DNA from: Solirubrobacterales bacterium
GTDB taxonomy: Bacteria > Actinomycetota > Thermoleophilia > Solirubrobacterales > JACPNS01
DNA length: 64,000 nucleotides
Assembly: GCA_051306435.1 (NCBI GenBank)
Contig: JBPPNF010000006.1
Location: 834-64,833 of the forward strand
Reading direction: 5' to 3'
Part shown: in pieces, positions 2,496 to 30,792 of the stretch
How the letters are laid out: every line of letters starts with the position of its first letter
Numbering within the stretch: position 1 is the first letter of the stretch
Made by a program: the position numbers and the translations under genes
Notes under the pieces: model-generated
What the model was told of the DNA's origin: nothing
The model's database searches: none
Seen by the model: only the letters and a program-made list of their open reading frames with translations

Positions 2496-2766
2496 AAGCC
2501 ACGCAGAAATGTGCTCAGACTCCTCCACAGTCAAGACCGCTCGCAAGATACCACCAGCATGAGCAGCAAACTGCACGAACCCTGATGGCTCTGCAGGATT
2601 TGGGTACGAAACACGAAACTCGCCTAGATATGATCTGCATTCGGAATTTGGGGACCTGACCCGTCGTGTTGCACAGGAGCAGACGCCGCGGGGTCTGGGC
2701 AACTGCTGGGATAGCGAAAAGGATGGCCGCTTTGAATGCTGCCGTGAGGAATTACGGGGCGTCGAC

Positions 2767-3567: not shown

Positions 3568-3573
3568 GCAGCA

Positions 3574-4371: not shown

Positions 4372-4427
4372 CCGTGGAGTCATTGGCAATGCAAAGTTGT
4401 GCTTGTTTTGAGCAGCGAAGCGTCCGC

Positions 4428-4456
4428 TTGACGAACGGGTTTGAATACGCGATTAT
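4428..4456 (+). promoter_or_regulatory. candidate internal sigma70-type promoter (TTGACG-N17-GATTAT) in front of mceG
   Basis: TTGACG lies at 4428-4433 and GATTAT at 4451-4456, with a 17-nt spacer. The predicted TSS falls at about the GTG at 4463, which would give a leaderless or near-leaderless mRNA. Sequence pattern only. Confidence 0.3.
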
Positions 4457-4462
4457 CGAAAG

Positions 4463-5503: not shown

Positions 5504-5629
5504 GTCAGACCAGGTGTTTCGAAAACTTCGTCAGCAATCGCGGGCCAGCATGGCCGCACACGGCGCCCCCTCGGAGGGGCGCTTGGCGCGTCTACGGGCG
5601 GTCGCTTCCGGCCGCACGACTGCGGGTGA

Positions 5630-7003: not shown

Positions 7004-7006
7004 GAC

Positions 7007-9885: not shown

Positions 9886-11306
9886 CCATGCATCACGGCG
9901 CAAATACGGGAATGTCGGTGCGAAAGGCCGGCCTGATCGCGATCATCGTGCTTTCGGTTCTCGTCTACTTCGCATTCTCGAAGAACATCCCGTTCACAAA
10001 CGGTTACAAGGTGAACGCCTATTTCACCAACGCCGCAAACATACAGCCCAAGGCGCAGGTACGAATCGCTGGCGTCAAGGTTGGAACCGTGGCGAGCGTT
10101 GAGCGCGGGGACGGCTCCACAACCAAGGTGGTTATGAACCTCGACGACAAGGCGCTCCCGATCCGACAGGACGCCGCAGCACGAATTCGATTCCGAATCT
10201 TTCTTGAGGGAAACCCATTTGTCGACCTTCAGCCAGGCACTCCCGGTTCGCCGGAAATCGAGTCTGGCGGATCAATCCCCGCGGCGCAGACCGCAGGTCC
10301 CGTGCAGCTTGACCAGGTGCTGAGTTCGGTCAACAGCGACGCGCGCACGGGCCTCGAGAACGTCTTCACGGAGATCGGCACTGCACTCAACACCAAAGGC
10401 ACACCTGCAGAGAACAAAACGCAGGACGATGAGGTGAAGGACCTCACCGGCGCGGAGGCTCTGAACCGCGCATTCCGCTACGGTCCCGAAGGATTCAAGG
10501 GAGGCGCACGCCTCTTCGACGCGCTGATCGGCTACAACGACGACGATCAGCTCACAGTTCTGCGCGGTTTCCGGGACTTCAACACCGCGATCAATGATCG
10601 CGAAACTCAGATCGTCCCGTTGATTGCTGACTTCGCGACCACGATGGGCGCATTCGCCGACGACGAGGTTGCTCTGGCCGAAGCCACGAGGCAGTTCTCT
10701 CGACTGGCGTATGAATCGGAGCCCACCCTTCGCCAACTGAACCAACTGCTGCCCCAGCTGACGCGCTGGTCGAACACGATTGCACCGAATCTCAAGGAGA
10801 TTCCGGCCACCGTTCGTGCGGCCTATCCATGGATAGAACAGACGAATCTGTTGCTCGCAAAGAATGAACTCGGTGGCACCGCGCCGCTTGCGCAGTCCAC
10901 GGTCGAGAACTTCGCCAAGACACAGGCAGCGTCGCAAGACCTGCTGCCGCAGCTCGACAACATCGCGAAGTGCTGGAACAAGAACTGGTTCCCGACGATG
11001 AACGCCGTCGTTCCGGACGGGGCCAACACATCCGGCAAGGAGAACTACAAGGAGTTCTGGTACTCGCTGGTCGGACTCAACAGTGCCTCGCAGAACTTCA
11101 ACGCGAACGGTCCATATCTGCGGCTTGGATCGGGCTCGGCAGCGCGAGTGACGACGCCGTCCGGAAAGCTCTACGGAAACGCGCCCCTCCCGCAAACCGG
11201 AACGAGCCCGCTCCTGCCCTCCAAGAACCCGATCGTTCAGACGTCGACTGCGTGCTACAAGAACTCGAGGCCGAACCTTGCTCCCACGAAGGGAAGCAGC
11301 CCCTGA
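9882..11306 (+). CDS. MCE-family protein, 4 of 6
   Basis: TM helix plus MlaD motif (KAQVRIAGVKVGTVASVE). 4-nt ATGA overlap with the upstream gene. Confidence 0.85.
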   Translation: MTMHHGANTGMSVRKAGLIAIIVLSVLVYFAFSKNIPFTNGYKVNAYFTNAANIQPKAQVRIAGVKVGTVASVERGDGSTTKVVMNLDDKALPIRQDAAARIRFRIFLEGNPFVDLQPGTPGSPEIESGGSIPAAQTAGPVQLDQVLSSVNSDARTGLENVFTEIGTALNTKGTPAENKTQDDEVKDLTGAEALNRAFRYGPEGFKGGARLFDALIGYNDDDQLTVLRGFRDFNTAINDRETQIVPLIADFATTMGAFADDEVALAEATRQFSRLAYESEPTLRQLNQLLPQLTRWSNTIAPNLKEIPATVRAAYPWIEQTNLLLAKNELGGTAPLAQSTVENFAKTQAASQDLLPQLDNIAKCWNKNWFPTMNAVVPDGANTSGKENYKEFWYSLVGLNSASQNFNANGPYLRLGSGSAARVTTPSGKLYGNAPLPQTGTSPLLPSKNPIVQTSTACYKNSRPNLAPTKGSSP

Positions 11307-12628
11307 TGCACGGACTGCGCAAATCACTCAAGCGCTACGGCGTGCACCTCGCCGCCATCGTGGTTCTCGTTGTGGCGTCGCTGGGAATCGCGGGCTACAT
11401 CTTGTCCAATCAGCGCCTCCACCTGCCGGCCTGGGTGCCGGTGGTCGGGACCGACTTCTACGTCGTGAATGCGCAGTTCTCAAGTGCGCAGGCGGTCACG
11501 CCCGGCCAGGGCCAGACGGTCAACATCGCGGGTGTCCCGGTCGGCGAGATCGGAAACGTCACGCTCAAGAATGGTGCCGCGAACGTAGAGCTGAAGATCC
11601 GTCGGTCACACGCGCCGATCTACAAGGACGCAACGATGCTGCTCAGGCCGAGGACGCCGCTCTCGGACATGTACATCGAGATGAAGACGGGCTCACCGAA
11701 GGCGGGCGAAATCGAGGAAGGCGGCACAGTTCCGCTCTCGAACACGCAGCCGACAGTCAACTTCGATGAGTTTCTCTCCGTGCTTGACTCGGATACGCGT
11801 GACTATCTCCAGAATCTCTTGACCGCTGCCGGCCAAGGTCTCGACGGACAGGCGAGCAACCTCCGTCAGGGCCTGAAACGCTTCCCGACGACCGGCAAGT
11901 ACGGCACGCGGATTGTGAAGGACCTACAGAAGCGCCATAAGAACATCAAGCGCGCGATCACAAACCTCGCGCTGCTGGCGGAGGCGCTCGGTGACAACTC
12001 GAAGATCTTCGCATCGCTGATCGATTCGTCGAGCGTGACATTCCGGACCTGGGCCAGCCAGCAGGAATCGATCAGGCAGATCGTCCAGAAAGCTCCAGCG
12101 GCGTTCGGTGAAACAGCCGACGCCGTGGCCGCCTCGGAGCCGGTGATCGAGGACACGGCAGTCGCCTTCAAGAACCTGCAACCGCTTGCGAAGGATCTGG
12201 GCGTGTCGCTGGAAAGCCTGCGTCCGTTCTTCCGCGATCAGACCACCGTCACCCGTGATCAGTTCCGCCCGCTCGCACGCGATTCCAAGCCGCTTCTGCA
12301 GCAGCTCAATCCGGCGGCTGTCAACTTTGCGAAGCTGACACCGGACGCGACGGCAGCGACGAAGTCGTTCAACAACCTCCTGAACCTCGTTGGATACAAC
12401 CCCAAGGGTTCTGAAGAGGGCTACCTCTACTGGCTCTCATGGTTCAGCCACATCTCTGCTTCCAGCTTCAATCGTGCAGATGCCAACGGCATCCTCGGTG
12501 CGGGCGCGATCGTCGGAAGTGACTGCGACTTCACGGCCTCCAGTGCAGCGGTGCGTGGCGGCAACGCAGTGCTTCGACTCCTGGTCGGACTCAACGACCT
12601 TCCTGCGGGACCGGGGTGCCCACAATGA
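11306..12628 (+). CDS. MCE-family protein, 5 of 6
   Basis: The start is moved to ATG 11306, which overlaps the upstream TGA. This gives MHGLRKSLKRYGVHLAAIVVLVV (TM helix) and then GQTVNIAGVPVGEIGNVTL. The longer track ORF from 10970 lies inside the previous gene. Confidence 0.82.
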   Translation: MHGLRKSLKRYGVHLAAIVVLVVASLGIAGYILSNQRLHLPAWVPVVGTDFYVVNAQFSSAQAVTPGQGQTVNIAGVPVGEIGNVTLKNGAANVELKIRRSHAPIYKDATMLLRPRTPLSDMYIEMKTGSPKAGEIEEGGTVPLSNTQPTVNFDEFLSVLDSDTRDYLQNLLTAAGQGLDGQASNLRQGLKRFPTTGKYGTRIVKDLQKRHKNIKRAITNLALLAEALGDNSKIFASLIDSSSVTFRTWASQQESIRQIVQKAPAAFGETADAVAASEPVIEDTAVAFKNLQPLAKDLGVSLESLRPFFRDQTTVTRDQFRPLARDSKPLLQQLNPAAVNFAKLTPDATAATKSFNNLLNLVGYNPKGSEEGYLYWLSWFSHISASSFNRADANGILGAGAIVGSDCDFTASSAAVRGGNAVLRLLVGLNDLPAGPGCPQ

Positions 12629-14211
12629 TCAAGCGCGCCCCAAGCCCCGCCCAGCTGATCTCGATGATCGTCTTCGCATTCTCATGCTTTGCGCTGATCC
12701 TGTTTCTCTGGGTCTCGTTCGGAGGCCCCGTGCCTTTGAAGCCGCAGGGTTATCGCGTGAACGTGACATTCACTGAAGCCGTCCAGCTTGCGACCGAGGC
12801 TGACGTTCGGATTTCTGGCGTACCCGTAGGAAAGGTCAAGGCTGTCGAGCCGGAGCAAGGCCGAACCGGCGCGACGCTCGAGATCGAGTCGCGATACGCG
12901 CCGCTCCCCGACGACGTCAAAGCGATCCTCCGAAGCAAGACTCTTCTGGGCGAGACATACGTGGAGCTCTCTCCTGGTACGAAGGGCTCTCGGACAATTC
13001 CGGAAAACGGCTCGATCTCCGCTTCTCAGGTTTCGAACCAGGTGCAGCTCGACGAGGTCATTCGAACCTTTGACCCAGTGACTCGAAAGGCATTCGGCGA
13101 CTGGCTGATCGGGCAGTCCGATGCGGTCAAGGGCCACGGAGATCAGCTCAACCAGGCGTTCGGCGTACTGCCGATGTTCTTCACCGACAGCAACAGTCTG
13201 ATGAAGGTCCTACACCGTCAGGACAAGGCTTTGTCGCGGTTGTTCGCCAACACAGCCGACATCTTCGAGGCGATCGACAGTCGTCCGGGCCAGTTGACCG
13301 AGTTGATCCTGACTTCCAATCGACTGCTGCGCGTCACAGCAAATCGCAGTCAGCAGCTGATCGACACTTTCAACGAGTTCCCGGAGTTCCTGCGACAGAC
13401 CCGTCAGACGATCGATCAGTTCCAAGAGTTCTCTGATGGAACACAGAACTTGATCGAGAACACGGGAGAGTTCGCCGACGCTTCGTCCCCGATCATGAAG
13501 AAGTCCGTCCAGGTGACGAATGATGCGCGCCTGCTCGTGAACGGTCTTGAGCCGATGCTGGACAAGGCCGACGCCGGCCTTCCGGCGACAGATCAGTTCC
13601 TCGATCTGGCCAGACCGACCCTCGCTCAGCTCGACCCGTTCTTGGCGAACCTCAATCCCGTTCTCCAGTTCGTGGGCGAGTACCAGCGTGAGCTGGCTGC
13701 CTTCCCGGCGAACGCTGCGGCAGCTTCTCAGGCGCAGCTCACGTCTGCAGACCCGGCCATCGGTCGTTCAAACTGGGGTCACTACCTCCGCACCTTTGTC
13801 ACGCTCACGCCGGACAATCTTGCTTACTACCCGAACAAGACGACCAGGACGCGGTCGAATGCCTACCCGGTACCCGGTTGGTACGACCGACTGGCGCAGG
13901 GCCTGCAGGTCTTCGACAGCGGCGCGTGTGGGACGATTGCGGTGCCGCCGCTGGACCCCGACACGACGCTCTACTCCGCGAAGTGGGGCGGTCTCCTGAC
14001 GGACATCAATCAACTCGTATACGCAGGTGAGTACACGCCGAACCCGACCGCGCCCGTGGGCGCGACCTCGGCAACCGCCAACCTCGCCCAAAGCCCCAAC
14101 AACGCCGCAAACCTCCCGGCCCCCAATTGCGAGCAGCAGGGCAACCACCCTTTCCAGGGTCAATCGCTCCAGTTCCCGCACGTCAACGAATCCTCGAACG
14201 CGAACCCCTAG
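12616..14211 (+). CDS. MCE-family protein, 6 of 6
   Basis: TM helix plus MlaD motif (EADVRISGVPVGKVKAVE). GTG 12616 is the track start; ATG 12625 would give an ATGA overlap with the upstream stop. Confidence 0.85.
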   Translation: MPTMIKRAPSPAQLISMIVFAFSCFALILFLWVSFGGPVPLKPQGYRVNVTFTEAVQLATEADVRISGVPVGKVKAVEPEQGRTGATLEIESRYAPLPDDVKAILRSKTLLGETYVELSPGTKGSRTIPENGSISASQVSNQVQLDEVIRTFDPVTRKAFGDWLIGQSDAVKGHGDQLNQAFGVLPMFFTDSNSLMKVLHRQDKALSRLFANTADIFEAIDSRPGQLTELILTSNRLLRVTANRSQQLIDTFNEFPEFLRQTRQTIDQFQEFSDGTQNLIENTGEFADASSPIMKKSVQVTNDARLLVNGLEPMLDKADAGLPATDQFLDLARPTLAQLDPFLANLNPVLQFVGEYQRELAAFPANAAAASQAQLTSADPAIGRSNWGHYLRTFVTLTPDNLAYYPNKTTRTRSNAYPVPGWYDRLAQGLQVFDSGACGTIAVPPLDPDTTLYSAKWGGLLTDINQLVYAGEYTPNPTAPVGATSATANLAQSPNNAANLPAPNCEQQGNHPFQGQSLQFPHVNESSNANP

Positions 14212-14247
14212 GCCGTCGGCCTTAAAACCGGCACCTCCGCAGACGCC

Positions 14248-16791
14248 GTGAACCTTCCTGACTTCTACCGTCGCGCCGCCGAGCGAGCAGCGCGCGTTTC
14301 GTTGAAGAAGCCACCGATCGTGATTGCGATCTCCGGCCTGCTTGCGGTTGGCGCCGCGCTGCTGGCACTGAACCTCACGCCTGACACCGGCGTCGAGTCG
14401 ATCACCGGCACCAGCTCAGACACCTACAAGTCCACGCAGGTCTGGGCCGACAACTTCGGCGGCGATCCGATCGTTGTCGTCGCCAAGGGCAAGGTCGCAG
14501 AGCTCGCGCTCGGATCGGACCTCGGCGTGATGCTCGGCCTCGAAGGCTGTCTCTCGGGCAAGATCCCGAAGAAGGCGCTTGCAGCCCAGCCGAAGGTCTG
14601 TCAGGACATCGCGAAGCTCAAACCGGCGGTCGCCGTCTACGGCCCGGGCACGTTCGTGAACACGGCCGTCATCTCCATCCAGGACACGATCACCGAACTC
14701 TCAAAGCAGGCCCGGAAACAGGGCGAGGAGGCAGGCGAAGCCGCCGCCGAGGTCGCGCGTCGCTCGGGCAAGGGCACCCAGGCGCAGGAGAAGGCACGCA
14801 AGGCCGCCGCCGACGCCACGCGCCTCCAGCTGCTCACCTACGCGCTGAAGCTCGGCACGCAGTACAACCTCGGGCCAGGCAGCCAGCCCAGCCTCAACAA
14901 CCCCGAGTTCATCGCCCGCCTGATCTTTGACCCGATCAACGGATCCGACACGCCGAAGGCGCGTTGGTCATACATCTTCCCCAGCAAGGACGCCGCGATC
15001 ATCCAGGTTCGCCTGCGTCCGGGCCTCACCTCCGAGCAGCGCGCGCAGGCGGTTGACCTCGTCAAGCGCGCCACCGCCGACAACAAGTACGCGCTCTCAA
15101 AGGGTGAGTACTTCGTGACCGGTGCGCCGGTGCTCCTGACCGGCGTCGAGCAATCGATCCAGGAGGCGATCGTCGTGCTGCTGATCGCCGCGCTGCTGGT
15201 CATGGGGATCGCCCTGCTCGTCGTCTTCCCCGCCGAGCTGCGGCTGCTGCCGCTGATGCTCGCGCTGATGGCCGCGGCGATGACCTACGGCCTGCTTGCG
15301 CTCACCGGCTCGACGATCGGAGTGGGGGCGGTGGCTGTGCTCCCGGTGCTTGTGGGTCTGGCGGTGGACTACGCGATCCAGTTCCATGCTCGCGCCGACC
15401 GCGCGATGCAGTCCGGCGCGAGCCCGCCCGAGGCCGTCATGAAGGCTGCCACCAGCGGCGGCCCGCCGGTGCTCGCGGCAGCCACTGCAACGATCGCGGC
15501 CCTGCTCGCCCTGATCCTCAGCCCGGTCCCCTTGATTCGCGGCTTCGGCCTGCTGCTGGTGATCGGCGTCGCGCTCGCGATCGTGATCGTGCTCACCGCC
15601 GGCTTTGCAACCCTGGGCTGGGCGGGAGGTGCCGCCAAGCGCACTCAGCGCCGCCAGCCCGCCGAGACGGTCGCCGGCTGGGTGCGGCTGCGCAAGCTCT
15701 TCAACCGCACGACTGCCAACCCGCGCAAGACGGTGCGGATCGCGCTGGCCGTCGCTCTAGTCGGCTGGATCGCCGGCCTGCTCTCGCCGGTGACCACAGA
15801 CGTCCAGCAGCTCGTGCCGGCAAGCCTTGGCGCCGTGAAGGACGCCAAAGAGTTCCAGCGCCTGACCGGCACGAGCGGCGAGGTCTCCGTCCTTGTCCAG
15901 TCAAAGGACGTCACCGACCCCAAGGCCGTCAAGTGGATGATCGACTTCCAGAAGGCAGCGCTCGCCGAAGCCGGTTACAAGGGCGAGAATCCGACCTGCG
16001 CGAAGTCCGCGCTCTGTCCGGCGCTTTCGCTCTCCGGCCTCTTTGAGGGGCAGAAACTCACCCGGGCGAGCATTCGTCGCACGCTCGATCAGGTCGGCGA
16101 CTTCTCGCGCGGCGCCGTCACCAGCGACCGCAGGATGGCCACGATCGCCTTCGGCCTGCGTGAAGAGGCGCTGAACGATCAGAAGCAGTCGATCGACGCC
16201 CTGCGCTCGCGGATCGAGGACCAGCCGCCTCCAGCGGGCACCACGGCGACCGTGGTCGGGCTCAGCGCCCAGGCCGCCGACGCGAGCGGCGCGCTCAGCA
16301 ACCCCTTCAGGCGACTGCTTATCGCGCTGGTGGCGCTGGGCCTGCTGCTGCTCGTCGTTCGCGGCGTGTCTGCGAACTGGCGCAAGGCGTACGCGCCTGT
16401 GCTGTCGGTCGCGGCGGCTGCGGGCATCTCTGCGCTGCTGCTCTTCATCCTGCGGATCGATCTGAACCCGATGTCCGCGGCGCTGGGCGTCTTCATCATC
16501 GCGATCGCCGGCGAGTTCACGCTGTTGATCCACATGCAGTACCTGCGTGAGCGCAAGGATGCTCCGGACGTGGAGACGATTACCGCCTTCCGCAAGGCGT
16601 ACAAGAACATCGGCCCGGCCGTCTTCGCCTCGGGCGTGACCGCGATCGCCGGTTTCGCCGCGTTGGCCGTCAGCGACATCAACATGCTGCGCGGATTCGC
16701 AATCGTCGCCGTGGTCGATCTCGCCGTCGCGCTGGCCGGCACCGTTCTGCTTCTTCCCGCAATCACAGCCTGGCTCGAAGACGAGAAATGA
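14248..16791 (+). CDS. MMPL/RND-superfamily membrane transporter (two MMPL halves, HpnN/HAE3-like)
   Basis: 847 aa with two repeats, each a large extracytoplasmic loop followed by a 5-6 TM bundle. The N-terminus (VSLKKPPIVIAISGLLAVGAALLAL) and overall architecture are typical of MMPL transporters. Lies 36 nt after the last mce gene. Confidence 0.8.
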   Translation: MNLPDFYRRAAERAARVSLKKPPIVIAISGLLAVGAALLALNLTPDTGVESITGTSSDTYKSTQVWADNFGGDPIVVVAKGKVAELALGSDLGVMLGLEGCLSGKIPKKALAAQPKVCQDIAKLKPAVAVYGPGTFVNTAVISIQDTITELSKQARKQGEEAGEAAAEVARRSGKGTQAQEKARKAAADATRLQLLTYALKLGTQYNLGPGSQPSLNNPEFIARLIFDPINGSDTPKARWSYIFPSKDAAIIQVRLRPGLTSEQRAQAVDLVKRATADNKYALSKGEYFVTGAPVLLTGVEQSIQEAIVVLLIAALLVMGIALLVVFPAELRLLPLMLALMAAAMTYGLLALTGSTIGVGAVAVLPVLVGLAVDYAIQFHARADRAMQSGASPPEAVMKAATSGGPPVLAAATATIAALLALILSPVPLIRGFGLLLVIGVALAIVIVLTAGFATLGWAGGAAKRTQRRQPAETVAGWVRLRKLFNRTTANPRKTVRIALAVALVGWIAGLLSPVTTDVQQLVPASLGAVKDAKEFQRLTGTSGEVSVLVQSKDVTDPKAVKWMIDFQKAALAEAGYKGENPTCAKSALCPALSLSGLFEGQKLTRASIRRTLDQVGDFSRGAVTSDRRMATIAFGLREEALNDQKQSIDALRSRIEDQPPPAGTTATVVGLSAQAADASGALSNPFRRLLIALVALGLLLLVVRGVSANWRKAYAPVLSVAAAAGISALLLFILRIDLNPMSAALGVFIIAIAGEFTLLIHMQYLRERKDAPDVETITAFRKAYKNIGPAVFASGVTAIAGFAALAVSDINMLRGFAIVAVVDLAVALAGTVLLLPAITAWLEDEK

Positions 16792-23959: not shown

Positions 23960-24739
23960 TCAACGTTGATTTGCCGAGTGCCGCTCCCACGGCACGATCC
24001 GGCGTTCGAGCAGGGCGGTGAGTCCGTAGAGCGCCAGCGATCCGGCGGTCAGGATCAGGATCGCGGCGTAGACGCGCGAGGTGTCAAAGGTGGGCGTGCC
24101 GCGGGCGATCAGGTAGCCGAGGCCCGCGTCCGCGCCGGCGTACTCGGCAAAGACCGCCGCGATGAAGGCCCACGTGGCCGCGATCCGCACGCCGCCGAGC
24201 AGGCGCGGCAGTGCGGCCGGCAGTTCAGCGAGCCGCAGGATTCGGGCGCGCCCGGCTCCGAGCGAGCGCATCAGCTGGATCAGCTGCGGGTCCGCGCTGC
24301 GCAAGCCGTCGAACGTGCCGATGACCACCGGGAAGAAGCAGGCGATCGCGACGATCAGAATCTTTGTCGAGAGCCCGAAGCCGAACGCGATCACCAGCAG
24401 TGGTGCGAGCACCACCGTGGGCACGGCCTGTGAGGCGACGACGACCGGGAGGGTCGCGTCACGCAGAAAAGGGGAGAGGTGCAGCACGATCCCCAGCGCC
24501 GCGCCGAAGCAGCAGGCGGCGGCCAGACCGAGCAGCGCCTCCGTGGTCGTGACCCGTGCGGCCGGAAGCAGGATGTCGAGCTCGCCGGTCAGCGTGCGCG
24601 TGACGTCCCACGGTCCCGAGACCACGAGATTGCTCATGCCGCCGTAACGCACGAACAGCTCCCAGACGGCGATCAGCAGGACGAACGCGATGACCGGACT
24701 GAGCCGGCGCAGCCAGCGAGGGCGCGGTCGCTCGTTCAT
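23960..24739 (-). CDS. thiX: ABC transporter permease, NitT/TauT family (ThiX-type)
   Basis: 6-TM BPD-type permease lying between the ATPase and the binding-protein genes. 4-nt overlap with the ATPase gene. Confidence 0.75.
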   Translation of the reverse strand: MNERPRPRWLRRLSPVIAFVLLIAVWELFVRYGGMSNLVVSGPWDVTRTLTGELDILLPAARVTTTEALLGLAAACCFGAALGIVLHLSPFLRDATLPVVVASQAVPTVVLAPLLVIAFGFGLSTKILIVAIACFFPVVIGTFDGLRSADPQLIQLMRSLGAGRARILRLAELPAALPRLLGGVRIAATWAFIAAVFAEYAGADAGLGYLIARGTPTFDTSRVYAAILILTAGSLALYGLTALLERRIVPWERHSANQR

Positions 24740-25545
24740 GACAATGCCTCCAGCGCCTCGGCCTTCAGGCCCGCAAACTCAAGCGAGGTGGCCCAGTCGG
24801 TGCGGCTCACTCCGCGCGGGCGGCCGACGGAAATCTCGGCCGCGACACGTCCCGGGCGCGGCGTGACGATCACCATGCGGTCGGCGAGCGTCAATGCCTC
24901 TTCAACGTCGTGGGTGACCAGCAGCAGCGTGCGCGGCTCCTCGGCGAGCGCGTCTATCAGCCACTCCTGCATCTGGCTGCGCGTGATCGAGTCGAGCGCG
25001 CCGAACGGCTCGTCAAGCGCGAGCAGCGGCCGCCCGGTCAGCACAGTGCGCAGGAAAGCGACGCGCTGGCGCATTCCTCCAGAGAGCTCCCAGGTCTTCG
25101 AGTTCTCAAACGATTCGAGACCGAAGCGCTCAAACAGTGGCGCCGCGCGGCGGACGGCCTCGGCCTTCGGGACGCCTTGCGCCTCCAGTGCCAATGCCGC
25201 GTTGCGCAGCGCGCTGCGCCATGGCACCAGCAGATCGCGCTGGGGCATCAGCGCGACGGCTTCGCCGACAGAAACGGTTCCACTGGTCGGGGCAACAAGA
25301 CCGGCCGTCAGCGCCAGCAGGCTCGACTTGCCGCAGCCAGACGGTCCGACGACGGCAACCTGCTCGCCGCTGGCGATGTCCAGCGTGAAGTCCGTAAGCG
25401 CGTCGGTCGATTTCTCGCGCGAGCTGTAGGTCAGGCCGACCGCGTCAAAACGCGCCGCGCTTCTGGGCGCCGCGGGTGCGGTCGTAGGGGCCGGCCGTTG
25501 CGCGGGTGCTACGACTGCCGCCGAGGTTTGCTCTGGCAAGTCCAT
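24736..25545 (-). CDS. thiZ: ABC transporter ATP-binding protein, NitT/TauT family (ThiZ-type)
   Basis: Walker A GPSGCGKSS, signature LSGGMRQR and Walker B LLALDEPFGALD are present. The start is moved to ATG 25545 (RBS GAAGGAAG) because 25552-25662 is a TPP riboswitch rather than coding sequence. Confidence 0.8.
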   Translation of the reverse strand: MDLPEQTSAAVVAPAQRPAPTTAPAAPRSAARFDAVGLTYSSREKSTDALTDFTLDIASGEQVAVVGPSGCGKSSLLALTAGLVAPTSGTVSVGEAVALMPQRDLLVPWRSALRNAALALEAQGVPKAEAVRRAAPLFERFGLESFENSKTWELSGGMRQRVAFLRTVLTGRPLLALDEPFGALDSITRSQMQEWLIDALAEEPRTLLLVTHDVEEALTLADRMVIVTPRPGRVAAEISVGRPRGVSRTDWATSLEFAGLKAEALEALS

Positions 25546-25549
25546 ACTG

Positions 25550-25662
25550 CTGCTTCCTTCGCGGGAATTACCCCACAGGTTCAAAGGGTCCGCGGCCGCC
25601 GCAGACAACTGCTCTGCGAATCCACGATCTCAGCCCGCTTTGCTGCGAGCTCCCCTGACGAC
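25550..25662 (-). promoter_or_regulatory. TPP (THI-box) riboswitch
   Basis: The minus-strand RNA reads ..CAGGGGAGCUCGCAGCAAAGCGGGCUGAGA-(38-nt P3 hairpin region)-ACCCUUUGAACCUGUGGGGUAAUUCCCGCGAAGGAAGC. This matches the consensus GGGGUGC...GCUGAGA...ACCC-UUGAACCUGAUCUGGAUAAUGCCAGCG-AGGGAA. The 3' end overlaps the Shine-Dalgarno of the ATPase gene. Confidence 0.85.
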
Positions 25663-25704
25663 GGGTACTGCTGATGCCAGTGTACAGACGCGCCCAGCGA
25701 CGAT

Positions 25705-25950
25705 TGCTGCACACCTCTGGTGTGCAGCAGGTTTTTGCGGTGAAGAATGGCTCAGGTATGCGGGGTGTTGCTGCACACCACTGGTGAGCAACAACGGGAG
25801 GTGCGTGTTCGCGGTGAGCTGAGCCGACCGGACCCGACGCGACCCGACGCAGCGCCCACTGCTGCACACCAGAGGTGTGCAGCGCGACTTCGCTCAACCA
25901 AGGGCTCCTTCGCTTCCAAAATGCTGTTGCTCACCAGAGGTGTGCAGCAG
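25705..25950. repeat. four-hairpin repeat module, copy A
   Basis: Hairpins at 25705-25729 (TGCTGCACACC-TCT-GGTGTGCAGCA), 25767-25792 (imperfect, ACT loop), 25861-25883 (GCTGCACACC-AGA-GGTGTGCAGC) and 25924-25950 (one mismatch, AGA loop). A tandem 10-mer GACCCGACGC x2 lies at 25831-25850. Confidence 0.85.
25924..25950 (-). terminator. intrinsic terminator of the regulator gene (hairpin 4 of module A)
   Basis: On the minus strand, a 12-bp stem with one mismatch is followed by CAUUUUGG, 32 nt after the stop codon at 25982-25984. Confidence 0.6.
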
Positions 25951-25981
25951 TTGCCAGTTGGCGCGCTGCGGGGCGGGGGGG

Positions 25982-27295
25982 CTAGTGACGATTGCTCAGG
26001 CGTCGCAGGCGACTGAGGGATGCGGCGCGGCGCGGGTCGGCGGGGGAGAGCCCGCCGATCAATGCTTTGGTCGCGACCAGGTCGTCCTGGCCGGACGGCG
26101 TTGCGAGCCAGCGTTCGATCGCGACCGGGTCGCCGCTCGCGAGCACAGTCGCGCGCAGCGCATCGTCGACGCGATCGCGTAGCTCGGCGATAAGCGGCAC
26201 CTGCGAGTTGGGCAGGAGCGGTCCGTCGTAGAGGTCAAGCGCCGCGTCGACCATGCCGGCGCGGGCCAGCCGCTCGACGCTCAGCGCGTCGATCAGCAGT
26301 GGTTCGTCGATCCGGTAGGGCTGATCGGCGATCGCGATGCCGGTGCGCTGGCGCAGGCGGTGCAGCTCTGCGCGCACGCTGACCGGTTTGCCGAGATCGC
26401 CGTACATCTCGAAGGCGAGCTGCTCTCCGGAAGCACCCTGGGGGAGGAGGCTCAAGAGCACGAGCAGTTCACTGTGGCGTTGCGAGATCTGCAGCGACTT
26501 GCCGCCGAAGCGCAGGTCACCGCGCCGGCGGCCGGTCACCTTCAGCGAGTGCCCTTCAAACGTTGCGACGGGGGCCGGCACGTCCATCATCCCCAGCGCC
26601 CGAACGCGCAGACGCTCTTCGACCATCCGCGCAGTCGCCTGCACCATCGCAAGCCCGTTGGGATGGGCGGTGGCGAGCTCGCCGGTCAGGTCGATCACGC
26701 CGAGCACCTCGCCGGTCATCGGATCGTGGACGGGTGCCGCGCTGCAGGTCCAGTCGCGGATGTTGCGCGTGAAGTGCTCGGACGAGAAGATCTGCACTGC
26801 GTGGCTCTCGGCGAGCGCAGTGCCCATCGCGTTCGTGCCCACGGCGGTCTCGCTCCAGACCGATCCCTCATGGAGGTTGATGTCCTCGGCGGCGGATTCG
26901 AGAACCTGCGGATCGCCTGCACGCCAGAGCATCGTGCCGTCGATGTCGCAGACGAGCACGATCTGTTGGGTGTCTGCGGCGACGTCGTCGAGCAGTCCGC
27001 GCAGCAGCGGCGCGGCGCAGGCGAGCGGGTGCGTTTCCCAGCGCCGCGCGGCGTCGTCGATCGTCACGGCGGTGGGGGCCAGGCCGTGTTCCGGGTCGAC
27101 GCCCGCCGCGAGAGATCGGCGCCAGGAGCCGAGCACCACGTTGCGCAGCTCGGGTTGGCGTCGGTCACCGTCGAGCTGCTTGCGCCCTTCGCCGCTGCGA
27201 AGAGCGCGATCGCGCGCGCGTTCGAGAGAAAGTGCCCAGCTCTGGGTGTCAGTCGTCGAATCGACTGCCAACCATGGATTTGGACTTTGAGACAA
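25982..27295 (-). CDS. transcriptional regulator: N-terminal AcoR-type GAF sensor domain plus C-terminal winged-helix/BTAD-like region
   Basis: WSETAVGTNAMGTALAESHAVQIFSSEHF...WTCSAAPVHDP is the GAF motif of AcoR-like regulators. The C-terminus (SQRHSELLVLLSLLPQGASGEQLAFEMYGD...VRAELHRLRQ, then LYDGPLLP) resembles a DNA-binding activator domain. TTG start. Divergent from an aldehyde dehydrogenase gene. Confidence 0.7.
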   Translation of the reverse strand: MSQSPNPWLAVDSTTDTQSWALSLERARDRALRSGEGRKQLDGDRRQPELRNVVLGSWRRSLAAGVDPEHGLAPTAVTIDDAARRWETHPLACAAPLLRGLLDDVAADTQQIVLVCDIDGTMLWRAGDPQVLESAAEDINLHEGSVWSETAVGTNAMGTALAESHAVQIFSSEHFTRNIRDWTCSAAPVHDPMTGEVLGVIDLTGELATAHPNGLAMVQATARMVEERLRVRALGMMDVPAPVATFEGHSLKVTGRRRGDLRFGGKSLQISQRHSELLVLLSLLPQGASGEQLAFEMYGDLGKPVSVRAELHRLRQRTGIAIADQPYRIDEPLLIDALSVERLARAGMVDAALDLYDGPLLPNSQVPLIAELRDRVDDALRATVLASGDPVAIERWLATPSGQDDLVATKALIGGLSPADPRRAASLSRLRRLSNRH

Positions 27296-27365
27296 CTTCA
27301 GTTCACTCCCTGAAATTCACTCTACAGAGCTGGCGCCTGCCCATGTGGCAGGGCGCAACCCGGGT

Positions 27366-27375
27366 GCAACGTTGC
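27366..27375. promoter_or_regulatory. perfect 10-bp palindrome GCAACGTTGC in the regulator/ALDH divergent promoter region
   Basis: Read directly. The same 130-bp intergenic region also has TTCACTC direct repeats (27302-27308, 27316-27322) and an imperfect hairpin at 27333-27356. Confidence 0.3.
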
Positions 27376-27425
27376 CGGGCGTAGGTTCGATCGTGGGGGA
27401 ACTGAAGCTATGGAGAGGAACTGCA

Positions 27426-28922
27426 ATGTCCACTGAACTGAAGGCCGATCCCGACGCATTGAAGTTTGCCGCCGGCGATCACCACATGCTGATCGGAGGC
27501 GACTGGGTGCACGCCGCGTCAGGCAAGACTTTCACCACGCCCAACCCGGCCACCGGCGAGGTGCTCGCGACCGTCCCGGCCGGCAACTCCGAAGACATCG
27601 ACCGCGCCGTGAAGACCGCACGCGCGGCATTTGAGACCGGTCCTTGGAGCCGCATGACGCCCTCCGAGCGCGGCCGCGCGATCCACAAGATCGGCGACCT
27701 GATCCTCGAGCACGCCGACGAACTCGCGACGCTCGAATCGCTCGACAACGGCAAGCCCTATGCGATCGCCCGCGCGGCGGACGTGCCGCTTTCCGCCGAT
27801 CTCTTCCACTACATGAGCGGTTGGTGCACGCGCTCGCAGGGTGAGTCGATCGTGCCGTCGGTGCCGTACATGCCGGGCGCCGAGTTTCACGCCTACTCGC
27901 TGAAGGAGCCGGTCGGCGTGGTTGGTCAGATCATCCCCTGGAACTTCCCGCTGCTGATGGCGGCATGGAAGCTCGGACCGGCGCTCGCCGCCGGATGCAC
28001 AGTGATCTGGAAGCCCGCCGAGCAGACGCCGCTATCGGCCCTGCGTCTCGGCGAGATCATCCTCGAGGCCGGCATCCCCGAGGGCGTCGTCAACGTCGTG
28101 ACCGGGTTCGGCGAGGACGCCGGCGCGCCGCTCGCGGCGCACGACGACGTCGACAAGGTCGCCTTCACGGGATCGACCGAGGTCGGCAAGCTGATCGTGC
28201 AGGCGGCATCGGGCAACCTCAAGAAGGTCTCGCTCGAGCTCGGCGGCAAGTCGCCGAACATCGTCTATGCCGACGCCGACATGGAGACGGCGATCCCCGG
28301 GGCGGCGGGCGCGATCTTCTTCAACCACGGGCAGTGCTGCGCTGCCGGATCGCGGCTCTTCGCAGAGAAGTCGGTGTTCGATGACGTCGCTCAGGGCGTC
28401 GCCGACGCTGCAAAGAAGATCCGCGTGGGCCCGGGGCTCGACCCCGCAACCGAGATGGGGCCGCTGGTCTCGCACGACCAGATGTCCCGGGTCTGTCGCT
28501 TCCTCGACGAGGGCGCCCGTGACGGCGCAACAGCTCTCGCCGGTGGTGGCCGCCACGGGGAAGAGGGCTACTTCGTGCAGCCGACGGTGCTGACGGACAC
28601 CTCCAACGACATGTCGGTCGTCCGTGAGGAGATCTTCGGCCCGGTGGTGACGGTGATCCCGTTCGACTCCGCCGAAACAATCCGCCAGCCCGCAAATGAC
28701 TCAGATTTCGGTCTGGCCGCGGGAATCTGGACGAACGACCTCTCCAAGGCCCACCGCACGGCCCGCCAGCTGCGCGCCGGAACGGTGTGGATCAACTGTT
28801 ACAACGTGTTCGACGCGGCGCTGCCATTCGGCGGCTACAAGCAGTCGGGCTGGGGACGGGAGATGGGCCACGAAGCGATGGAGCTCTACACCGAAACCAA
28901 GGCAGTGTGCGCTCAGCTCTGA
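27426..28922 (+). CDS. NAD(P)+-dependent aldehyde dehydrogenase
   Basis: The start is moved to ATG 27426 (RBS GGAGAGGA). FTGSTEVG, ELGGKSP and the catalytic region NHGQCCAAGSR are present, and the length and termini are typical of the ALDH superfamily. Confidence 0.9.
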   Translation: MSTELKADPDALKFAAGDHHMLIGGDWVHAASGKTFTTPNPATGEVLATVPAGNSEDIDRAVKTARAAFETGPWSRMTPSERGRAIHKIGDLILEHADELATLESLDNGKPYAIARAADVPLSADLFHYMSGWCTRSQGESIVPSVPYMPGAEFHAYSLKEPVGVVGQIIPWNFPLLMAAWKLGPALAAGCTVIWKPAEQTPLSALRLGEIILEAGIPEGVVNVVTGFGEDAGAPLAAHDDVDKVAFTGSTEVGKLIVQAASGNLKKVSLELGGKSPNIVYADADMETAIPGAAGAIFFNHGQCCAAGSRLFAEKSVFDDVAQGVADAAKKIRVGPGLDPATEMGPLVSHDQMSRVCRFLDEGARDGATALAGGGRHGEEGYFVQPTVLTDTSNDMSVVREEIFGPVVTVIPFDSAETIRQPANDSDFGLAAGIWTNDLSKAHRTARQLRAGTVWINCYNVFDAALPFGGYKQSGWGREMGHEAMELYTETKAVCAQL

Positions 28923-29068
28923 GAATCCAGCTGAATTGCGCTACGCGATGAGCCCACCACCGGCGGCGCCACGCCATCCCCCGCAAACGGCGCCGCCGGC
29001 TCATCGCCCCGAGCAGGTTGAAAACCGGCACCAGGGGAGCAGCAGCCGAGATGCTCCATCGACCTTGT

Positions 29069-29314
29069 GCTGCGCACCTCTGGTGAGCGGCGGGAGTTCG
29101 CGCCGAGAAACCGCTTGTTCATGGGGTTGCGTGCTGCACACCTCTGGCGTGCAACGCGCCCTTGGATGGGCTGCGCCGGAGGGCGGAGGCGAACAGCATC
29201 AATGCCGCAATCGACCCAGCCCGTCGCTGCACACCAGAGGTGTGCAGCACCAAACCGCTCAACAGAGGCTTCCTTTGGTATCAAAACACCGTTGCACACC
29301 AGAGGTGTGCAACG
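29069..29314. repeat. four-hairpin repeat module, copy B (same order, orientation and spacing as copy A)
   Basis: Hairpins at 29069-29091, 29131-29157 (TCT loops), 29226-29248 (GCTGCACACC-AGA-GGTGTGCAGC, identical to 25861-25883) and 29290-29314 (CGTTGCACACC-AGA-GGTGTGCAACG). Inter-hairpin gaps are 39/68/41 nt, against 37/68/40 nt in copy A. Confidence 0.85.
29290..29314 (-). terminator. intrinsic terminator of the VWA gene (hairpin 4 of module B)
   Basis: On the minus strand, a perfect 11-bp stem is followed by GUGUUUUGA, 18 nt after the stop codon at 29332-29334. Confidence 0.65.
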
Positions 29315-29331
29315 CGAGCGTGGGTGTTGGG

Positions 29332-30792
29332 TCAGCGGGGGCGGACGGCGGTCAGTTCTCGGACGAACTCTTCGAGCTGTTTGCTGGTCCAGCACTCGAA
29401 GACGCCGTCGCAGAACCTTTTGTACACCCCGATCACGGAGTCCCCGTAGTTCCAGTAAAGCCGTGGCTCAGGATTCAGCCAGAAACTCCGGCCGGCCTTC
29501 TCGGTCACCTTGCCAAAAAGGTCCGCGCGCGGTTCGCGGCCGTTGGTCCGAGCGTCGCCGAGGACGATCACCGTCGAGCGGGGATCGAGGTCTGCTGCAA
29601 CCTGGTCATAGAAGTCGATCCACACGCGGCCGTAGTCGGTGTAGCCCGAGATGTCGGCAACGCCGGCAGTGTTCGAGATCTTCTCGGATGCAGCCTTGAA
29701 TGATCGCTCCTGCTCGAAGACATCAGTCACCTCGGCAACCCGCTCGATGAAAACGAACGTGCGCAGTCGCTTGAAACTGTCGTGCAGCGCATGCAGGATC
29801 GACAGAAAGAACACGCTCGCGCTGGTCACGCTGGTCGAGACGTCGCAGAGCACATAGAGCTCTGGTCTGCGCGGGCGGCGTGGGCGGTATCGAAGGTCGA
29901 TCGGCACGCCACCCGTCTCAAGTGAAGCGCGCATCGTCTGACGCACGTCGATCGGGCCGCTGCGGTTGTGGCCGCGCTGCTCGAGCCCCTGGGTGGCCAT
30001 CGCGCGCTTGAGCATCTTCACCGACCGGTGCACGGCCGCAAGATCCTGAGATCCACCGGACGGCAGCGCGCGGTTCATCTCGTTCAGCGGGCGCGCCGTT
30101 GGCAGTTCGCCGGTCTCGGAGATCATCCGTGCCTCCAGCTCGCGCCGCACGTGTTGCTCGAACTTCTGCAACTGTTTGCGCAGGTCTTCGCCCTCGGCAC
30201 CCGGCGGGAGGTCCTGCGAGCGCAGCTCCAGCTGTCGCCGGACGCGCTGCACATCCACACCGACGACGCCGCTGCTGGCGCCGCCGGCAAGAGTCATGAT
30301 CGCGAGCCGGGCAAGATCGCGCAGCGTGGCATCGCTGCCGCTCTCGAGCGCTTCCATGATCGCTTCGCGCAGCGCCTCGACATCGATCTGCGTGTCGCCC
30401 TCACCGCCTTCTCCGAGCTGTGGATCACCGTCCTCGCCCTCGCGTTGAGCGCCCTCGGCCTGTGCTCCGTCCTGCTCGCCGCGGGCATGTTCACGCGCAG
30501 CCTCAGCCTCGGTGGCGCGGAAGAAGTAGCGGTCAAAGACGGCAGCAAACAGCGTGCGGTCCTCCTGCGACTTGGCGATCGTCGCGGACATCGCCTCGCG
30601 GAAGGCGGCTCGATCGGTCCAGTCGACTTCACCGAGAGCATCGAACGCGTCGAGCAGTTCGGACGTGCCGACAGCCATCCCTTCGTCACGCAGCTCGCGT
30701 GCGAAGTCAACCACCAGCGGGCCGACTCCCGCGGCGTCGCCGCTCGGTCCGCCGGAAGTGAACCGGGCCCACGCGGGAACGCCGGCGTTCAC
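29332..30792 (-). CDS. VWA domain protein, CoxE-like
   Basis: The C-terminal half (YVLCDVSTSVTSASVFFLSILHAL...VIVLGDARTNG...SFWLNPEPRLYWNYGDS) matches the VWA_CoxE pattern with a MIDAS-like DxSxS. Lies 9 nt downstream of a MoxR ATPase gene. Confidence 0.8.
   Translation of the reverse strand: MNAGVPAWARFTSGGPSGDAAGVGPLVVDFARELRDEGMAVGTSELLDAFDALGEVDWTDRAAFREAMSATIAKSQEDRTLFAAVFDRYFFRATEAEAAREHARGEQDGAQAEGAQREGEDGDPQLGEGGEGDTQIDVEALREAIMEALESGSDATLRDLARLAIMTLAGGASSGVVGVDVQRVRRQLELRSQDLPPGAEGEDLRKQLQKFEQHVRRELEARMISETGELPTARPLNEMNRALPSGGSQDLAAVHRSVKMLKRAMATQGLEQRGHNRSGPIDVRQTMRASLETGGVPIDLRYRPRRPRRPELYVLCDVSTSVTSASVFFLSILHALHDSFKRLRTFVFIERVAEVTDVFEQERSFKAASEKISNTAGVADISGYTDYGRVWIDFYDQVAADLDPRSTVIVLGDARTNGREPRADLFGKVTEKAGRSFWLNPEPRLYWNYGDSVIGVYKRFCDGVFECWTSKQLEEFVRELTAVRPR

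Follow-up and report, generated by a model that had tools for sequence, protein, structure and literature searches.

A palindromic four-hairpin module found on both sides of a regulator-aldehyde dehydrogenase gene pair in a Solirubrobacterales genome is probably a small non-coding insertion element

Among the closest described counterparts of the repeats reported here are the REP, BIME and REPIN elements of Proteobacteria, which are mobilised by Y1 enzymes of the RAYT type and consist of short, GC-rich, imperfect intergenic palindromes located just past genes (PMC3337134, PMC3733652, PMC3333891). REPs occur in clusters and dimers, with spacers of 20-100 bp, and are sited after genes (PMC3733652), while REPINs are hairpin-forming doublets in which the REPs are conserved and the spacers are not identical (PMC3337134). 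REP and BIME elements are known for stabilising upstream mRNA (PMC3733652), and the BIME-2 clusters of E. coli are gyrase targets and supercoiling barriers (PMC10592627). The modules described below resemble these elements not only in the nature and location of their palindromes, but also in regular spacing, in the preservation of palindromes with differing linkers, in the ability of a group to fold as one long hairpin, in presence or absence among related genomes, and in a possible role as 3' stem-loops (PMC3337134, PMC3733652, PMC3333891).

In the window, i.e. the whole 64-kb stretch of DNA that was analysed, which belongs to an uncultured actinobacterium from soil, hairpins of the form CTGCACACC-NNN-GGTGTGCAG occur eight times and are confined to positions 25707-25947 and 29070-29312. 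An earlier note on this DNA had reported eight hairpins in two clusters, and this was borne out: a scan of the 64 kb with the pattern CTGCACACCNNNGGTGTGCAG, in which up to three mismatches were tolerated, gave 8 matches against 0.01 expected, a number reached in none of 100 shuffles. No further copy was revealed in the window by half-site scans and a covariance model. All the hairpins are intergenic and 21-25 nt in size, with stems of 9-11 bp and loops of 3 nt. The loops are TCT, ACT, AGA and AGA in cluster 1 and TCT, TCT, AGA and AGA in cluster 2, as had been noted before, and the third hairpins of both clusters (25861-25883 and 29226-29248) are indeed the same over 23 nt. Conservation of the geometry was also found, with start-to-start spacing of 64/91/65 nt in module 1 and 64/93/65 nt in module 2, but the exact gaps given previously (37/68/40 and 39/68/41) differ from those measured with 23-nt hairpins (41/68/42 and 41/70/42).

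Each cluster constitutes a single long imperfect palindrome of about 285 nt, in which two units of two hairpins each, inverted relative to one another, flank a centre that is not conserved; the arms are 80% complementary across 49 nt, outer hairpins included. As judged from the asymmetry of loops and flanks, the order of hairpins is forward, forward, reverse, reverse in both of them and in a third module, found in another genome. Both window modules fold as one long hairpin (module 1: -152 kcal/mol, z -7.5; module 2: -151 kcal/mol, z -6.9). The claim that stems are kept better than spacers found support in the comparison of the four window units, in which hairpin columns are 88% identical versus 54% for the inter-hairpin spacer, and some stem changes are paired. 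Pairing is retained in 90% of stem cells, and four pairs carry changes on both sides; these correspond to only 1-3 evolutionary events, and a palindromic site bound as double-stranded DNA would account for them just as well. Mismatches in the arms affect 4 of the 8 window hairpins, and half of the stems are free of them. When Rfam covariance models were compared with the modules, no family matched, whether at the gathering score or with E values up to 1.

Module 1 (25694-25981) lies between the stop codon of a GAF-domain transcription regulator of the MimR_N/GAF/HTH type (25982-27295, minus strand) and the TPP-riboswitch leader of a ThiXYZ-like ABC transporter operon (25537-25666, minus strand). 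The riboswitch was assigned by a match to Rfam RF00059 (E 3.6e-7) that, with 46.7 bits, does not reach the gathering score of 54.3, and its sequence is conserved in all relatives read. Since the left neighbour of the module is an ABC ATPase gene on the minus strand (24736-25545) preceded by this riboswitch, module 1 is placed between a gene end and the leader of the next operon, not between convergent genes. The left unit of the module consists of the outer hairpin H1 (25705-25729, plus strand; TGCTGCACACC-TCT-GGTGTGCAGCA followed by GGTTTTTG), which is terminator-like on the plus strand only, and the inner hairpin H2 (25769-25793, plus strand; loop ACT), in which the 3' arm GGTGAGCAA produces two stem mismatches. 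The right unit comprises the inner hairpin H3 (25860-25884, minus strand), with a perfect stem and the same sequence as H7 of module 2, and the outer hairpin H4 (25925-25949, minus strand), followed by CAGCATTTTGG on the minus strand.

The relatives compared were contigs of uncultured Solirubrobacterales. Seven of them bear the regulator gene and lack the hairpins, their intergenic regions being short (119-173 nt). The regulator adjoins the riboswitch and ABC genes in the same order in six of the seven, including L121 and L131, the only two with the whole CoxE-ALDH-regulator-ABC order; the L122 contig stops inside the leader/ABC region. Module 1 is absent from L118, L119, L121, L122, L123 and L131, thus even from the contig (L122) with a regulator protein 93% identical to that of the window. 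Because these relatives have the regulator and the same gene order without the hairpins, module 1 represents an insertion of about 288 nt. In blastn, the alignments of this region with L118 and L122 are interrupted at 25708 and at 25982-25984, and the final 15-16 nt of the regulator gene are present twice: in the proximal copy CTAGTGACGATTGCT (25982-25996), containing the present regulator stop and last codons, and in the distal copy CCAGCGACGATTGCT (25694-25708), which runs into the ancestral downstream sequence and has its stop codon mutated from TAG to TGG (minus strand). This duplication, though backed by the comparison with relatives, is imperfect (13/15 identical) and off-centre relative to the palindrome, and the module ends that it sets are not mutual inverted repeats.

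Module 2 (29046-29331) is located in the region separating the gene for an aldehyde dehydrogenase (ALDH; 27426-28922, plus strand; PF00171, E 3.8e-178) from that for a VWA/CoxE-like protein (29332-30792, minus strand; PF05762), between the CoxE stop and a native intergenic hairpin. The latter, a long hairpin at 28945-29007, is common to the window and L131. In the left unit, the outer hairpin H5 (29068-29092, plus strand; CTGCGCACC-TCT-GGTGAGCGG) is the most decayed copy and has no T-tract, and the inner one is H6 (29132-29156, plus strand). The right unit contains the inner hairpin H7 (29225-29249, minus strand) and the outer hairpin H8 (29290-29314, minus strand), followed by GTGTTTTGAT and terminator-like on the minus strand; the pair at its stem base is changed from C-G to T-A. 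Module 2 is absent from L121 and L131, where the intergenic regions are 119 and 173 nt, respectively, and also from L124 and L125. Candidates for a target duplication were weak, and neither a clear duplication nor a clear terminal inverted repeat could be assigned to it. The CoxE-like protein shows 100% identity to P0121, a protein attributed to a Solirubrobacterales bacterium MAG, and an independent contig, L130, is 100% identical to the window up to its own end, just past H8. A break right after H8 in this assembly, obtained from another sample, is as expected at a repeat.

The third four-hairpin module was found in L132, a relative with an 83% identical CoxE, between the AAA ATPase and CoxE genes, which are separated by a gap of only 9-10 nt in the window, L121, L124, L125 and L131. 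Its hairpins are spaced 64/83/64, have the loops TTT, TAT, AAA and AAA, and all four show a paired A-T to G-C change in the stem. The covariance model built from the four window units alone matched both L132 units (58 and 40.8 bits; E 4.6e-13 and 1.3e-8), and this module also folds as a single long hairpin (z -10.3). Here, too, candidates for a target duplication were weak, and no clear duplication or terminal inverted repeat could be assigned. The same geometry at a different site of another genome supports the earlier description of the four hairpins as a genuine unit that recurs. The earlier note would have abandoned it had the four-unit arrangement never occurred elsewhere and had relatives kept the gene order without the modules; the latter is the case, but the former is not. 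Altogether, the hairpins occur at two sites in the 64-kb window, at one in 13.5 kb of the L132 genome, and at none in about 110 kb of other relatives.

The modules share some properties with the known REP families and differ from them in others. The window hairpins are imperfect extragenic palindromes of the 20-40 bp class to which REPs belong and, as in REPINs, two inverted parts form one hairpin over the whole span with non-identical spacers; a module arm, however, has two palindromes instead of one. REPs bear a GTAG/CGTC tag, whereas a consistently placed tag is missing from all 12 hairpins: GTAG or CTAC was found within 12 nt of none, and GACG or CGTC near three, at inconsistent positions. 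Successive REPs alternate in BIMEs, while in the modules the hairpins of an arm are head-to-tail and the arms are inverted (2+2); head-to-tail dimers are rare in REP families. E. coli RAYT requires a stem mismatch, in contrast to the perfect stems of half of the module hairpins. REPs are dispersed over genomes in tens to hundreds of copies and accompanied by a RAYT gene that REPs themselves flank, whereas the family known here comprises three modules in two genomes with no RAYT in view, and its copy number per genome may be very low. The host belongs to Thermoleophilia, and Actinobacteria do not figure in the portions of the REP surveys drawn on here. Moreover, Y1 enzymes (RAYT, IS200-type) are not expected to leave a duplication of 15-16 nt like that found at one module copy.

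The modules are also similar to MITEs, as they are non-coding, about 280 bp long, intergenic and insertion polymorphic, with halves that are inverted repeats, and one copy is flanked by a direct target duplication. Unlike in MITEs, the inverted similarity spans whole arms and is centred on internal palindromes rather than on defined repeats at the termini, no insertion sequence is known that shares the ends and could be the parent, and the duplication, of a length unusual for transposons, was seen at one of the three sites. In transposons of the IS21, Tn7, Mu and Tn5053 type, the ends contain several transposase-binding sites, with two in direct orientation on one side and two inverted ones on the opposite side. 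This is the arrow pattern of the module, but the sites at such ends are not known to be palindromes themselves, and neither a transposase nor a full-length element of this type was found here. Among about 45 window ORFs tested there was no transposase, RAYT or integrase (Y1_Tnp included), and neither the window nor the retrieved loci contain an autonomous insertion sequence with matching ends; searches of plasmid and viral sequences gave no match either. No further module copy appeared in exact-pattern JGI metagenome scans, a viral scan, plasmid blastn, or six-frame protein and representative-protein searches, and a scan of a genome collection gave chance matches only among the matches listed.

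Direct repeats around a 3.1-kb two-gene unit that is variably present at this locus among relatives could mark where a mobile cassette of regulator and ALDH genes ends or has left scars, as the earlier note had suggested, or could serve its excision or amplification by homologous recombination. This explanation is largely refuted, and we regard it as extremely unlikely. The unit is carried without modules in the seven related contigs mentioned above. Nucleotide identity to L118 is equal on either side of module 1 (83.3% and 82.7%), inside and outside the unit, which is therefore orthologous and was not imported with the modules. Relatives devoid of the pair have no leftover solo module. In L125, 79 nt from the 3' end of ALDH persist, and deletion there therefore used other end points; in L124 and L134, the place of the unit is taken by a penicillin amidase gene. 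L132 has a module elsewhere and lacks the pair at this locus, with a clean junction. Recombination between the modules is physically possible, but no product of excision or amplification was seen, and uninterrupted identity between the two copies does not exceed 23 bases. Thus, the modules look like flanking the regulator and ALDH genes by coincidence, without having brought them in.

Two other explanations assign a host function to the modules. They might be mainly host-selected RNA structures, which would serve in tandem as intrinsic terminators or as stabilisers of 3' ends, insulate adjacent transcription units and spread only incidentally. H4 and H8 end 32 and about 18 nt past the regulator and CoxE stop codons, respectively, as the earlier note had correctly given, and mRNA stabilisation is known for REP and BIME elements (PMC3733652). 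The claim that both these hairpins are terminators held only in part: H8 (minus strand) and H1 (plus strand) fit the pattern of a hairpin with a T-run in a terminator scan, but H4, with a T-run of only 4 (TTTT), was not called. H1 has the best T-tract, but points along the plus strand, with no gene to terminate; T-runs are present in three of the six outer hairpins and in none of the inner or L132 ones, and the scan gave 3 sites versus 2.1 expected, i.e. no enrichment. A terminator would be harmful between the closely spaced AAA and CoxE genes split by the L132 module, relatives manage without modules, and the native hairpin already lies between ALDH and CoxE. Such a primary role is quite unlikely; terminator activity is plausible for H8 and weaker for H4, as far as sequence can tell, and would be secondary. 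Alternatively, a dimeric DNA-binding protein (nucleoid-associated, partition-type, or gyrase as at BIME-2) could bind the palindromes as double-stranded sites, of which each module has four, and the modules could then bracket the divergent regulator and ALDH genes and insulate them topologically or transcriptionally. The 9+9 symmetry of the perfect palindromes, their constant 3-bp centre and the fixed 64-nt spacing agree with this, symmetric half-site changes are also expected from co-evolution with a dimer, and the E. coli BIME-2 clusters provide a precedent (PMC10592627). However, no candidate protein is known, arm mismatches break the symmetry in half of the window hairpins, close relatives with the same genes lack the sites, and the third module lies at an unrelated place in a genome without the pair at the locus; we find this explanation very unlikely.

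The reading that we prefer, with a probability of roughly two in three, is that each cluster is a copy of a small insertion element that is non-coding, about 270-300 bp long and copied in trans. Each arm of the element would consist of an outer hairpin, a spacer of about 41 nt and an inner hairpin, followed by a variable centre of 60-70 nt and the arm inverted. An enzyme encoded elsewhere would recognise the conserved hairpins with their 9-11 bp stems, which would explain both the difference in conservation between hairpins (about 88%) and spacers (about 54%) and the joint change of all four hairpins of a module between genomes. An enzyme that recognises single-strand hairpins, of the REP/RAYT or IS200/IS605 type, is favoured by the 3-nt loops of the palindromes and by the folding into a long hairpin, whereas the target duplication of module 1 speaks for insertion at a staggered cut, as by a DDE transposase. 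It is also possible, though unlikely, that the modules represent a new, independent type of miniature mobile element in Thermoleophilia that has no relation to REP/RAYT, with its own predicted hairpin-specific enzyme co-evolving with the stems (A-T versus G-C) and with insertion at gene ends producing a long target duplication of 15-16 nt that regenerates the stop codon and the promoter region of the neighbour. A bolder variant would have the module pair co-opted as an insulator bracket around the divergent regulator and ALDH genes.

Under the preferred trans-copied element, the regulator-ALDH pair would have been in place first, and the two window copies would have reached its two sides by separate arrivals or by local hopping. 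Insertion in intergenic DNA near gene ends is shown by the three independent sites occupied, namely the regulator stop, the CoxE stop and, in L132, the junction between the AAA stop and the CoxE start. The duplication accompanying module 1 may have kept intact the regulator stop codon as well as the sequence just upstream of the thiamine riboswitch, and the CoxE and regulator transcripts probably have their 3' stem-loops or terminators in the outer hairpins that possess a U-run, H8 and, to a lesser degree, H4. The modules form a sporadic repeat family that is insertion-polymorphic and resembles the REP/BIME/REPIN elements or MITEs.

The hairpin CTGCACACC-NNN-GGTGTGCAG occurs in the 64-kb window in eight copies, against 0.01 expected at up to three mismatches, and all of them are confined to two clusters, at 25707-25947 (module 1, hairpins H1-H4) and 29070-29312 (module 2, H5-H8); half-site scans and a covariance model found no ninth copy there. 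Loops read TCT, ACT, AGA, AGA in module 1 and TCT, TCT, AGA, AGA in module 2, start-to-start spacing is 64/91/65 and 64/93/65 nt, respectively, and H3 is identical to H7 across 23 nt. The clusters had been correctly described in the earlier note as to copy number, loops, geometry and the H3-H7 identity; only the spacer lengths quoted there were a few bases off. Each module consists not of four equal repeats but of two inverted copies of a two-hairpin unit, in which an outer hairpin is followed by a spacer of ~41 nt and an inner hairpin, and the centre separating the units (60-70 nt) is not conserved. Alignment of the four window units gave a mean column identity of 74%, with pairwise identity of 88% in hairpin columns versus 54% in spacer columns. 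Folded as a single strand, each module forms one long hairpin (-152 kcal/mol, z -7.5 for module 1; -151 kcal/mol, z -6.9 for module 2). A T-run follows three of the four outer hairpins (H1 GGTTTTTG, H4 CAGCATTTTGG, H8 GGTGTTTTG) and none of the inner ones in either window module.

The order from left to right is ABC operon, module 1, regulator, aldehyde dehydrogenase (ALDH), a native hairpin, module 2 and CoxE/AAA. The ThiXYZ-like thiamine operon on the minus strand comprises an ABC ATPase gene (24736-25545), then a permease and an NMT1/THI5-type binding protein, and is headed by a TPP riboswitch (25537-25666, minus strand) kept in every relative read; its score, 46.7 bits (E 3.6e-7), lies below the Rfam gathering score of 54.3, so the default scan missed it. 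Module 1 sits between the leader of this operon and the end of the GAF-domain regulator gene (25982-27295, minus strand; MimR_N/GAF/HTH type), and module 2 between the convergent ALDH (27426-28922, plus strand) and CoxE-like VWA genes, the latter lying with AAA to its right on the minus strand. The long GC-rich hairpin at 28945-29007 (GCGATGAGCC...GGCTCATCGC), between ALDH and module 2, is homologous to a hairpin directly 3' of the CoxE stop in the related contig L131; originally it probably served as terminator in both directions for the convergent ALDH/CoxE pair. No transposase or integrase family match was obtained among ~45 window ORFs tested. Matches to Guanidine-II (mini-ykkC; 26040-26093, minus strand, inside the regulator coding sequence; 24.5 bits, E 0.06) and to CcsR1 (E 0.82) were taken as chance. 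Elsewhere in the window, 2563-16791 holds a complete operon for Mce-type lipid uptake (two MlaE permeases, one ATPase, six MlaD/Mce proteins) with an MMPL transporter after it, an arrangement ordinary for actinobacteria; third-position GC of the Mce genes at 7-12.5 kb is lower than in the rest of the window.

Contigs of relatives were retrieved around homologues of the regulator and CoxE. For the window CoxE protein, a 100% identical counterpart exists in an NCBI MAG named Solirubrobacterales bacterium, and an exact look-up of the ALDH protein found no identical entry on record. The regulator (77-93% protein identity to the window where measured) is present in seven contigs, and the hairpin is absent from all of them. 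Two (L121, L131) show the full order CoxE-ALDH-regulator-riboswitch-ABC, three (L118, L119, L120) cover ALDH, the regulator and the ABC operon, L123 runs from the regulator into the riboswitch and next gene, and L122 terminates within the leader/ABC region. In these relatives the riboswitch leader begins just 10-25 nt from the regulator stop, and 119-173 nt lie between CoxE and ALDH. Nucleotide identity to L118 is 83.3% over ALDH and regulator versus 82.7% over the ABC operon, and the alignment is interrupted exactly at 25708 and 25984. The equal identity on both sides of so sharp a break indicates that the regulator-ALDH pair is orthologous and vertically inherited, and that module 1 is an insertion of ~288 nt in the window's lineage. 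At the junctions, the last 15-16 nt of the regulator are present twice, agreeing at 13 of 15 positions: the proximal duplicate (25982-25996) is the present gene end, and the distal one (25694-25708), just beyond H1, reads TGG in place of the stop codon and continues into the ancestral downstream sequence GTACACTGGC...AGCAGTACCCG. Judged from these alignments, it looks like a target duplication, and it explains how the regulator stop codon and the DNA immediately preceding the riboswitch survived the insertion.

A third module was found in L132/L133, contigs of the MAG GCA_023404495.1, whose CoxE is 83% identical to that of the window. There, the gap between AAA and CoxE is 309 nt, versus 9-10 nt in the window and the four relatives compared at that junction (L121, L124, L125, L131). 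The extra DNA contains four hairpins, CTGCGCACC-TTT/TAT/AAA/AAA-GGTGCGCAG, spaced 64/83/64; a covariance model built from the four window units only recovered both of its units (58 and 40.8 bits), its spacers are partly homologous to those of the window (e.g. GAGAAAC.GCTT and TTGAACAAGGGATTCC), and the whole folds as one long hairpin (z -10.3). Relative to the window, stems of all four L132 hairpins carry a paired A-T to G-C change. Over the 12 hairpins, 90% of stem cells are paired and four pairs have changes on both sides, with a covariation score above all 500 shuffles and all slid controls that represents only one to three evolutionary events. A palindromic site bound as double-stranded DNA would account for such covariation as well; what it demonstrates is therefore that the arms change in concert, and it does not prove that the structure is folded.

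The earlier note had proposed that the modules could be insertion scars of the regulator-ALDH unit, or sites at which recombination excises or amplifies it. What lies between the thiamine ABC operon and CoxE does vary among related Solirubrobacterales: the window, L131 and L121 have the pair; the regulator is found here in L118, L119, L120, L122 and L123, three of them with ALDH, on contigs that stop short of CoxE; the pair is absent from L125-L129 and L132, the L132 junction being clean; and a penicillin amidase gene takes its place in L124 and L134. This variation does not track CoxE identity, suggesting that loss or replacement happened repeatedly. The solo module expected from direct-repeat recombination is found in none of the genomes lacking the pair, L125 retains 79 nt of the ALDH 3' end, which makes its loss of the pair a deletion with end points elsewhere, and the longest identical stretch common to modules 1 and 2 is 23 bases. 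These observations leave the scar and cassette ideas unsupported, and with them the proposed link of the modules to mobility of the unit. The comparison shows the flanked regulator and ALDH to be ordinary, vertically inherited neighbours.

Other functions were considered for the hairpins themselves. That the sites act as an operator of the neighbouring GAF regulator was rejected: they are positioned at 3' ends, regulator-bearing relatives have no such sites, and L132 has them without the regulator. Orientation flips, together with spacers that are of unequal length and partly homologous between copies, exclude a CRISPR-like array, and an att-site/integrase model of the 15-nt duplication was rejected for want of a core common to all three insertion sites. 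The outermost minus-strand hairpins had been taken for terminators, and H8 and H4 would indeed be usable, secondarily, as 3' stem-loops; a conserved role of this kind does not hold, since no L132 hairpin is followed by a T-run and that module lies inside a gene pair tightly linked elsewhere.

The family is known from three modules (twelve hairpins) in two genomes, plus a partial copy of module 2 in a second sample. The latter contig, L130 (Logan SRR22508362), is 100% identical to the window across 2035 nt and stops just after H8, the only hairpin it includes (1987-2035); by this identity the window strain is present in a further sample, and short-read assembly fails at the module. A genome-collection scan with the loose pattern TGCACACCNNNGGTGTGCA gave at least 117 loci; among the matches listed all were chance or unrelated repeats, and none had a TCT, AGA or TTT loop. 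Two metagenome scans, one with the exact 21-mer and one with a degenerate form of it, gave 0 matches, as did a viral scan, and plasmid blastn returned just a 46-nt chance match. Composite six-frame translation of both modules yielded nothing at E <=10 among 5.8 billion proteins, and ORF 28913-29395 (minus strand) matched only two unrelated repeat proteins among 1.8 billion representatives; no conserved small protein is encoded. One scan match, L057 636-771 (Frankiales MAG CBIHPE010000134.1), has, in an intergenic position, a hairpin GGATTCTGCACACC-ACG-GGTGTGCAGAATCC and, at a distance of 74 nt, a degenerate version of it, with a 9+9 core and head-to-tail layout like one module arm (24.5 bits under the covariance model, E 2e-4); it may be a distant relative or a coincidence. 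A dispersed repeat of an unrelated Clostridia, the Oscillospiraceae MAG JAAVIC01 (L014, L018, L038, L058, L070, L072, L109; L048 and L052 were listed alongside), has the hairpin GTGCACACC-GCA-GGTGTGCAC followed by GGTTTTG, and in L072 its copies stand in tandem every 111 nt; that it shares the core palindrome follows from the way the scan selected its matches.

The best reading of the module is a sporadic, insertion-polymorphic, non-coding palindromic element. A hairpin-recognising enzyme would copy it in trans, and the two window copies would have landed on either side of a resident regulator-ALDH pair. Among known systems, REP/BIME/REPIN elements and MITEs come closest, sharing with the module conserved palindromes, diverging linkers, a hairpin-forming whole, location after genes and presence/absence between strains (PMC3337134, PMC3733652, PMC3333891). 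Unlike REP, the module hairpins have no GTAG or CGTC tag and stand head-to-tail within an arm instead of alternating; in contrast to MITEs, target duplication is seen at one module site only, and no terminal repeats could be defined nor a parent element found. The long duplication argues against a Y1-type enzyme, and the hairpin design argues for one.

Repeats of the REP, BIME, REPIN and MITE kinds have been studied chiefly in Proteobacteria, and we found no description of such small palindromic repeats for Thermoleophilia, a deep actinobacterial class known mostly from metagenomes. The modules are a real, neatly structured repeat and probably small mobile DNA of a palindromic kind, from a lineage that has received little study. 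Such modules can be misread as regulatory sites or cassette boundaries, and the repeat could serve as a strain-typing marker. A fixed two-plus-two hairpin layout, the lack of GTAG and stems that co-change between genomes would suggest a yet undescribed enzyme partner.
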